This document shows, in pieces, positions 2 through 219 of a DNA stretch of 219 bases. The stretch lies in the NCBI RefSeq assembly GCF_003334405.1, contig NZ_QOWM01000076.1, one strand, 5' to 3'. Under the pieces are notes generated by a model that ran no database searches, was not told where the DNA came from, and saw nothing but the letters and a program-made list of their open reading frames with translations. The position numbers and the translations under genes are program-made. This DNA is from Escherichia coli (lineage in GTDB: Bacteria > Pseudomonadota > Gammaproteobacteria > Enterobacterales > Enterobacteriaceae). How positions within the stretch are numbered: the stretch's first letter is position 1; the number at the start of each line of letters is the position of its first letter.

Positions 2-77
2 TGGCGTCCCCTAGGGGATTCGAACCCCTGTTACCGCCGTGAAAGGGCGGTGTCCTGGGCCTCTAGACGAAGGGGAC
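2..77 (-). tRNA. tRNA-Glu (anticodon UUC), complete 76-nt gene with genomically encoded 3' CCA
   Basis: Reverse complement of 2-77 reads GTCCCCTTCGTCTAGAGGCCCAGGACACCGCCCTTTCACGGCGGTAACAGGGGTTCGAATCCCCTAGGGGACGCCA. It folds as a cloverleaf: 7-bp acceptor stem GTCCCCT/AGGGGAC, anticodon stem CCGCC/GGCGG around loop CUUUCAC (anticodon UUC, encoded as gaa at window 41-43), T-arm GGGG-TTCGAAT-CCCC, and terminal CCA (window 2-4). From memory this matches the E. coli tRNA-Glu found in rrn spacers (gltT/U/V/W family); which copy cannot be told from the sequence. Confidence 0.95.
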
Positions 78-162
78 GTATCAGTCTGCTTCGCAAGACG
101 CCTTGCTTTTCACTTTCTATCAGACAATCTGTGTGAGCACTGCAAAGAACGCTTCTTTAAGG
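78..162 (-). other. 16S-tRNA-Glu internal transcribed spacer (16S-proximal part of ITS1), part of the rrn primary transcript
   Basis: The 85 nt lie between the mature 16S 3' end and the tRNA-Glu 5' end. The transcript-sense sequence is CCTTAAAGAAGCGTTCTTTGCAGTGCTCACACAGATTGTCTGATAGAAAGTGAAAAGCAAGGCGTCTTGCGAAGCAGACTGATAC. Its start (CCTTAAAGAAGCG...GTGCTCACACAGATTGTCTGATAGAAAGTGAAAAGCAAGGCG) matches my recollection of the enterobacterial 16S 3'-flanking spacer. Boundaries are set by the adjacent RNA genes. Confidence 0.85.
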
Positions 163-219
163 TAAGGAGGTGATCCAACCGCAGGTTCCCCTACGGTTAC
201 CTTGTTACGACTTCACCCC
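163..219 (-). rRNA. rrs: 16S ribosomal RNA, 3'-terminal 57 nt (partial; gene continues beyond the window end)
   Basis: Reverse complement of 163-219 is GGGGTGAAGTCGTAACAAGGTAACCGTAGGGGAACCTGCGGTTGGATCACCTCCTTA, the universally conserved 3' terminus of bacterial 16S rRNA. It includes the anti-Shine-Dalgarno CCUCC (window 166-170 as ggagg on the + strand). The mature 3' end ...CCUCCUUA maps to window 163; the exact end may differ by a nucleotide or two between species. Confidence 0.97.

Follow-up and report, generated by a model that had tools for sequence, protein, structure and literature searches.

An 85-nt 16S-to-tRNA-Glu spacer in an Escherichia coli rRNA operon fragment is the short form of a known dimorphism and is identical to that of K-12 rrnE

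The stretch of DNA analysed here (219 nt, henceforth the window) carries part of an rRNA operon, and all of its features lie on the minus strand: the 3' end of a 16S rRNA gene, a spacer, and a tRNA-Glu gene with anticodon UUC. Positions 163..219 hold the final 57 nt of 16S rRNA, which comprise helix 45 and the anti-Shine-Dalgarno tail (...GGAUCACCUCCUUA); read from 219 to 163, they match model positions 1477-1533 of 1533 of the Rfam bacterial SSU rRNA family (RF00177; 56.9 bits, E = 5.4e-16), and they are identical to the end of K-12 rrsE. The tRNA-Glu gene, its encoded CCA included, was placed at 2..77 by ARAGORN and Rfam (the Rfam tRNA model scores 60.1 bits at 77..5), and gltT, gltU, gltV and gltW of K-12 are all identical to it. 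ARAGORN found this single tRNA-Glu(UUC) 3' of the spacer, and not tRNA-Ile plus tRNA-Ala; the window ends at this tRNA. Apart from SSU rRNA and tRNA, the Rfam scan of the window returned only sub-threshold tRNA-like chance matches; no sigma-70-like promoter was found in the window, and its five open reading frames (20-44 aa) lie in an rRNA/tRNA context, with nothing supporting any of them.

Between the boundaries set by ARAGORN and Rfam lies a spacer of 85 nt (78..162), the Glu-type rrn spacer in its short allele; position +n in it corresponds to window coordinate 163-n. The 85-nt gap reported for this interval in a preliminary description of the DNA is thus present, and the strings quoted there (GAAAGTGAAAAGCAAGGCG and GTCTTGCGAAGCAGACTGATAC) are found on the minus strand; a test against chance has no bearing on a gap between two genes. 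What called for examination was the reading placed on this length, i.e., that so compact an interval might mark a different species or a short allele of the internal transcribed spacer (ITS).

In a megablast search of 5,426 complete E. coli genomes, the window matched many genomes, including K-12 MG1655, at 219/219 positions (E = 4e-110). The K-12 match is the rrn operon between purH and yjaA/metA, i.e., rrnE, and the RefSeq annotation of NC_000913.3 gives the same 85-nt gap there, with rrsE ending at 4209688 and gltV starting at 4209774; the rrsE-gltV spacer itself (4209689-4209773) agrees with that of the window at 85/85 positions, with no difference across the rest of the window. The rrnC spacer (rrsC-gltU) has the same length and the same 20-nt distal block, and it differs from the window by one substitution at spacer +47 (window 116), where the window has A and rrnC has G (84/85). 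The preliminary description had entertained a novel or foreign length variant, to be given up if K-12 itself proved to carry the same spacer, and at rrnE it does. In the wider set, the exact 85-nt allele of the window was the best match in 1,597 of 5,432 records, most of the others being 1-4 bases off. A 219-nt rrn fragment alone separates neither E. coli from Shigella, which falls within the E. coli lineage, nor one strain or operon of origin from another.

These lengths have appeared in print: S1 Table of PMC5179076 lists spacers of 171, 85, 85 and 171 nt, the value of 85 being given for gltU and gltV. The operon names in that paper follow strain W3110, in which, owing to the rrnD-rrnE inversion, rrnD corresponds to rrnE of MG1655. 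Both PMC4696680 and PMC5179076 accordingly put tRNA-Glu in 'rrnD' and the Ile/Ala tRNAs in 'rrnE', so that the operons are easily confused across the two sets of names; we considered whether this statement from the Ishihama laboratory was an error and rejected that idea, because the W3110 naming accounts for it. The machine-read S3 Fig of PMC5179076/PMC4696680 shows the short block as ggcgtcttgcaagcagactgatac, with one g fewer than the genome sequence.

Annotation and a five-way alignment of the Glu-type operons of NC_000913.3 give gaps of 85 nt in rrnC and rrnE and of 171 nt in rrnB and rrnG; the preliminary description was therefore right that the K-12 rrnB spacer is much longer than the one in the window. 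An ungapped comparison located the difference: Both alleles have 65 nt in common, followed either by 20 nt (the window, rrnE and rrnC) or by 106 nt (rrnB and rrnG). Within the common part, the long allele matches the window save for 2-5 substitutions, this being the strand that contributes to the processing stem, and the tRNA-Glu that follows is the same. The short-allele-specific block (spacer +66..+85, window 78..97, CUUGCGAAGCAGACUGAUAC) forms the immediate 5' leader of tRNA-Glu, and it is with this block that the 85-nt interval closes (CTTGCGAAGCAGACTGATAC): Between GCAAGGCGT and tRNA-Glu, the window has 20 nt and not the 106-nt block of the long allele. The two blocks are unrelated or barely related, and the 106-nt block does not contain the 20-nt one as a subsequence.

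To gauge how common each form is, we counted both across the 5,426 E. coli genomes. The short-allele junction, sought with a 52-nt probe that spans it and is unable to seed on the long allele, occurred at 17,570 places in 5,368 genomes (median 3 per genome), and the 106-nt block at 4,008 places in 2,791 genomes (51%; median 1). The two counts sum to 21,578, which is near four Glu-type operons per genome; the short allele thus accounts for some 81% of Glu-type copies, and roughly one genome in two has no long copy. The short form is the majority allele in E. coli and, if either form is unusual, it is the long form of rrnB and rrnG. The long form was the first to be sequenced and is the best remembered. 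Harvey, Hill, Squires and Squires (1988; J Bacteriol 170:1235) reportedly described its extra segment as a 'ribosomal spacer loop' (rsl), 106 nt in length, with about 20 nt taking its place. The figures of 106 and 20 used in this text are those measured in our analysis.

E. coli has long been known to be dimorphic for these two lengths, 85 and 171 nt, and the spacer of the window is an ordinary one that has already been published. A text search of the open literature found no paper describing the dimorphism itself, beyond the lengths given in PMC5179076. Spacer types are exchanged among E. coli rrn operons by gene conversion (PMC8022953), and it is by this process that the 20-nt/106-nt dimorphism would move from operon to operon. 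For typing by ITS length, the consequence is that both lengths coexist in single genomes (K-12 has two short and two long copies); in most strains, 3-4 short copies are accompanied by 0-1 long copies, so that a short band identifies neither species nor strain. The outcome corrects an impression rather than the biology, in that the spacer remembered from rrnB is the minority, long form.

Two observations concern the long allele itself. The 106-nt block of K-12 rrnB and rrnG (positions 2267-2372 and 946-1051 of the extracted loci) folds at -35.8 kcal/mol, with z = -2.8 relative to shuffled sequences. The first ~17 aligned nucleotides of this block (GTTGGGAGTGAGGCTGA) resemble, by eye, the short-type block of Dryocola/Buttiauxella (CTTGCGAGTGAGACTT), and the long allele may be a diverged short block with an insertion of ~80 nt.

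The comparison with Salmonella, Klebsiella, Enterobacter and related genera that the preliminary description had proposed places the window among ordinary spacers. We scanned one genome per species for a 16S end followed by 70-100 nt and a tRNA-Glu, a search that was not exhaustive (one E. coli record was returned) and that, being blind to longer intervals, says nothing on long alleles in other genera. Spacers of 80-86 nt were recovered in 44 DNA stretches from about 40 assemblies and about 20 genera (including Citrobacter, Enterobacter, Kluyvera, Leclercia, Phytobacter, Pantoea, Rosenbergiella, Mixta, Morganella and Dickeya); 85 nt was the commonest length, and identity to the window ranged from 74 to 88%. 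Among rrn-bearing records of a plasmid collection, Klebsiella pneumoniae, K. aerogenes and two operons of Salmonella Senftenberg had exactly 85 nt each. Besides their length, these Glu-type spacers share with the window the invariant core GTG(CT/TC)CACACAGATTGTCTGAT and the conserved GCAAGGCGTCTTGCGA..GAC, and they differ from it at +6..+19, at +45..+55 and in the last 6 nt before the tRNA. The short spacer is the general enterobacterial layout. The impression that the interval departs from the reference does not hold: This is the sequence of K-12 rrnE, the E. coli majority form and the usual length in other Enterobacterales. That the long form is specific to Escherichia is only suggested, as the 106-nt block was found in none of the non-E. 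coli entries among the rrn-bearing plasmid-collection records (one E. coli record only; few non-E. coli records).

Much of the spacer can be accounted for by its pairing with the rrn leader. Because the leader lies ~1.6 kb upstream and outside the window, the pairing was computed on the identical K-12 rrnE locus, where the duplex of spacer and leader reaches -80.4 kcal/mol, as against -35.9 +/- 4.5 for shuffled spacers. The leader pairs with 51 spacer positions between +6 and +63 in a near-continuous duplex that runs from the boxA region to about -88, and the predicted 3' strand of this 16S processing stem occupies window positions 100..157. A 2-nt 3' overhang is a hallmark of RNase III. In the computed register, leader -115 stands opposite spacer +31, and since 17S RNA extends beyond 16S by 115 nt at the 5' end and by 33 nt at the 3' end (PMC3996153, where the helix of Young & Steitz (1978) is cited), cleavage at -115/+33 would leave just such an overhang; on these 17S ends, the cut after +33 maps between window positions 130 and 129.

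The same helix was recovered in a consensus fold of 11 operons from seven genera, in which 97.8% of cells were paired, as against 38-50% with slid partners, a control that is generous in that the consensus helix was derived from the same 11 sequences. The pairs are mostly invariant, and the variable ones swap G-U for G-C or U-A for U-G; two-sided compensation is scarce, with two pairs, both from the poorly aligned Morganella row. In Enterobacter EA-1 (CP025776.1), 2 nt have been lost from each strand, exactly at the paired columns 32-33 and 101-102. Its leader lacks GT (CTGTG--GGCAC) and its spacer lacks the bases paired with them (GCTCAC--AG), beside the RNase III site; such a deletion of two base pairs shortens the helix without breaking it, although an artefact of sequencing or assembly in this single record is another possibility. 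As judged from these alignments, the helix is supported by its conservation, by switches between G-U and G-C and by a single double deletion at paired positions, and not by many compensatory changes.

A route of maturation can be proposed from this arrangement, with the identity, lengths, frequencies, complementarity and conservation observed here and the two cleavages inferred from established knowledge and the literature. The spacer would be transcribed within the rrn precursor, and its positions +6..+63 would base-pair with the leader upstream of 16S to form a long processing helix; RNase III would cut this helix after +33 and before -115, thereby freeing the 17S pre-16S rRNA; and the remainder, +34..+85, would serve as the 5' leader of tRNA-Glu until RNase P, along with other nucleases, takes it off at the 5' end of the tRNA, so that the whole spacer is eventually removed. 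An internal promoter in 16S, from which the spacer and tRNA-Glu are transcribed independently of rRNA synthesis, has been reported (PMC5179076); if this is right, the spacer doubles as the leader of that transcript. We regard it as nearly certain that the window is a piece of an E. coli Glu-type (type-A) rRNA operon, identical to rrnE of K-12 MG1655, whose spacer is transcribed, helps in 16S processing and is then removed; no result of the analysis speaks against this.

Position-wise identity to the window among 42 distinct Enterobacterales spacers varies along the spacer in segments. The helix core (+20..+44, window 119..143, GCAGUGCUCACACAGAUUGUCUGAU) is nearly invariant across genera, with a mean identity of 0.94; the lower stem (+6..+19) averages 0.53, and the purine-rich segment that faces the U-rich boxA region (+45..+55) averages 0.56. 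A conserved distal block (+56..+79, window 84..107, GCAAGGCGUCUUGCGAAGCAGACU) returns to 0.89, and the last 6 nt before the tRNA (+80..+85) fall to 0.32. That the two E. coli alleles are alike in exactly their first 65 nt follows from the constraint that the helix places on this part, the part in which they differ being the linker to the tRNA.

Several attempts were made to find a structure within the distal block. Its first positions, +56..+63, have the boxA region of the leader as their predicted partner, and pairing with this invariant region would explain their conservation. The 3' part (+64..+79) is conserved and was left without an assigned structure after the fold, hairpin and spacer-pairing tests. 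Two mutually exclusive hairpins, GCAAG/CUUGC and GUCU..AGAC, had 84-90% of cells paired among 24 distinct sequences, with no compensatory change and no excess over shuffled sequences, and neither the 34-nt tail nor the spacer as a whole folded better than shuffles. By eye, Morganella has a seemingly compensated GCAGA/UCUGC form of the first hairpin, which is out of register in the alignment and was not counted. We also asked whether the spacer tail pairs with the tRNA-23S spacer in a stem that would flank the tRNA, and rejected this pairing (-20.5 kcal/mol vs. -20.7 +/- 3.1 for shuffles).

Three other accounts of this spacer deserve consideration. The first is that the window is a fragment from a different species with a Glu-type spacer shorter than those of E. 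coli, which is the part of the preliminary description's either-or that fails (the short-allele part stands, 85 nt being one of the two E. coli lengths). Spacers of 80-86 nt do exist in other Enterobacterales, one Salmonella Senftenberg record is only two bases off the window spacer, and a contig labelled as an Oxalobacter metagenome-assembled genome (MAG) has an identical one. Against these stands the fact that the window agrees at all 219 positions with K-12 rrnE, as it does with many further E. coli genomes; moreover, with the Oxalobacter-labelled contig set aside, all of the recovered non-Escherichia spacers are at least 2/85 bases off, and mostly 12-26%. That contig is itself probably chimeric, with an rRNA part that is 97.7% identical to E. 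coli and a flank without an E. coli match, and origin in another species is, on balance, very improbable. We give still less credence, indeed hardly any, to the view that the 85-nt form arose recently by deletion from the 171-nt spacer and is, as such, a rare allele useful for typing. The 171-nt spacers of K-12 rrnB and rrnG would supply the parent, and the title of Harvey et al. 1988 speaks of a 'spacer loop' lost from rrnB in a K-12 subline; but a form that accounts for some four-fifths of the Glu-type spacers in the E. coli genomes is not rare, and its 20-nt block is a replacement rather than a remnant of the 106-nt block. In addition, the block GCGTCTTGCGA..GAC of the short layout is kept from Salmonella and Klebsiella to Morganella and Dickeya, and the short layout is therefore shared and probably ancestral. 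The confinement of the 106-nt block to E. coli among the rrn-bearing plasmid-collection records points the same way, as a weak check with few non-E. coli records.

The remaining account credits the distal block (+56..+79) with a function of its own at the RNA level: It might be recognized by a nuclease or a maturation factor that works on the leader of tRNA-Glu or on the 3' trailer of 16S, or it might form the core of a stable small RNA derived from the spacer. Its identity, 0.89 as against 0.56 and 0.32 in the neighbouring segments, is sustained from Escherichia to Morganella and Dickeya, and a promoter within 16S is reported to transcribe the spacer and tRNA-Glu apart from rRNA (PMC5179076). 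However, neither hairpin covaries, pairing with the tRNA-23S spacer is at the level of chance, the folds resemble those of shuffles, and the block belongs to no Rfam family; furthermore, rrnB and rrnG of E. coli work with +66..+85 replaced, and pairing with the boxA region already accounts for the conservation of +56..+63. We consider a dedicated element here unlikely, and the preferred reading of the spacer remains that of a transcribed strand that assists 16S processing and is then discarded.

On the plus strand, window positions 93..106 with a T-rich tail extending to 116 (GCAAGACGCCTTGC followed by TTTTCACTTT) fit a simple intrinsic-terminator pattern. This pattern is antisense to the rRNA transcript and mirrors the GCAAG/CUUGC hairpin; one was found, as against 0.3 +/- 0.7 in shuffled sequences, and it is probably meaningless.

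Some database records that carry this segment under unexpected labels merit description. In JAHAYL010000010.1 ('MAG: Oxalobacter sp. MBin.057'; match at 13049-13173), the spacer is identical to that of the window at 85/85 positions, and positions 9909-13266 (tRNA-23S-5S) agree with K-12 rrnE at 97.7%. The other 9.9 kb matched neither the rrnE flank nor any of the 5,426 E. coli genomes (positions 2000-9000 were tested), and the contig probably arose by chimeric assembly or mis-binning of metagenome sequence, with the join at the rRNA operon. A 455-nt contig assigned to Bacteroidota, CACSKA010000057.1 ('Chryseobacterium sp. 18061'), has an enterobacterial spacer that equals that of Citrobacter sp. 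18056 from the same project, and cross-contamination of assemblies is the likely source. Plasmid-typed records carrying this rrn segment number 95, of which 90 are non-mobilizable, and ten 'plasmid' places occur among the megablast matches to the E. coli genomes. Several of the rrn-bearing 'plasmid' records are 4.8-5.4 Mb long, several are pieces of 0.4-1.4 Mb and others are fragments of 7-22 kb; they appear to be whole or partial chromosomes that were deposited as plasmids, and not rrn-bearing plasmids.
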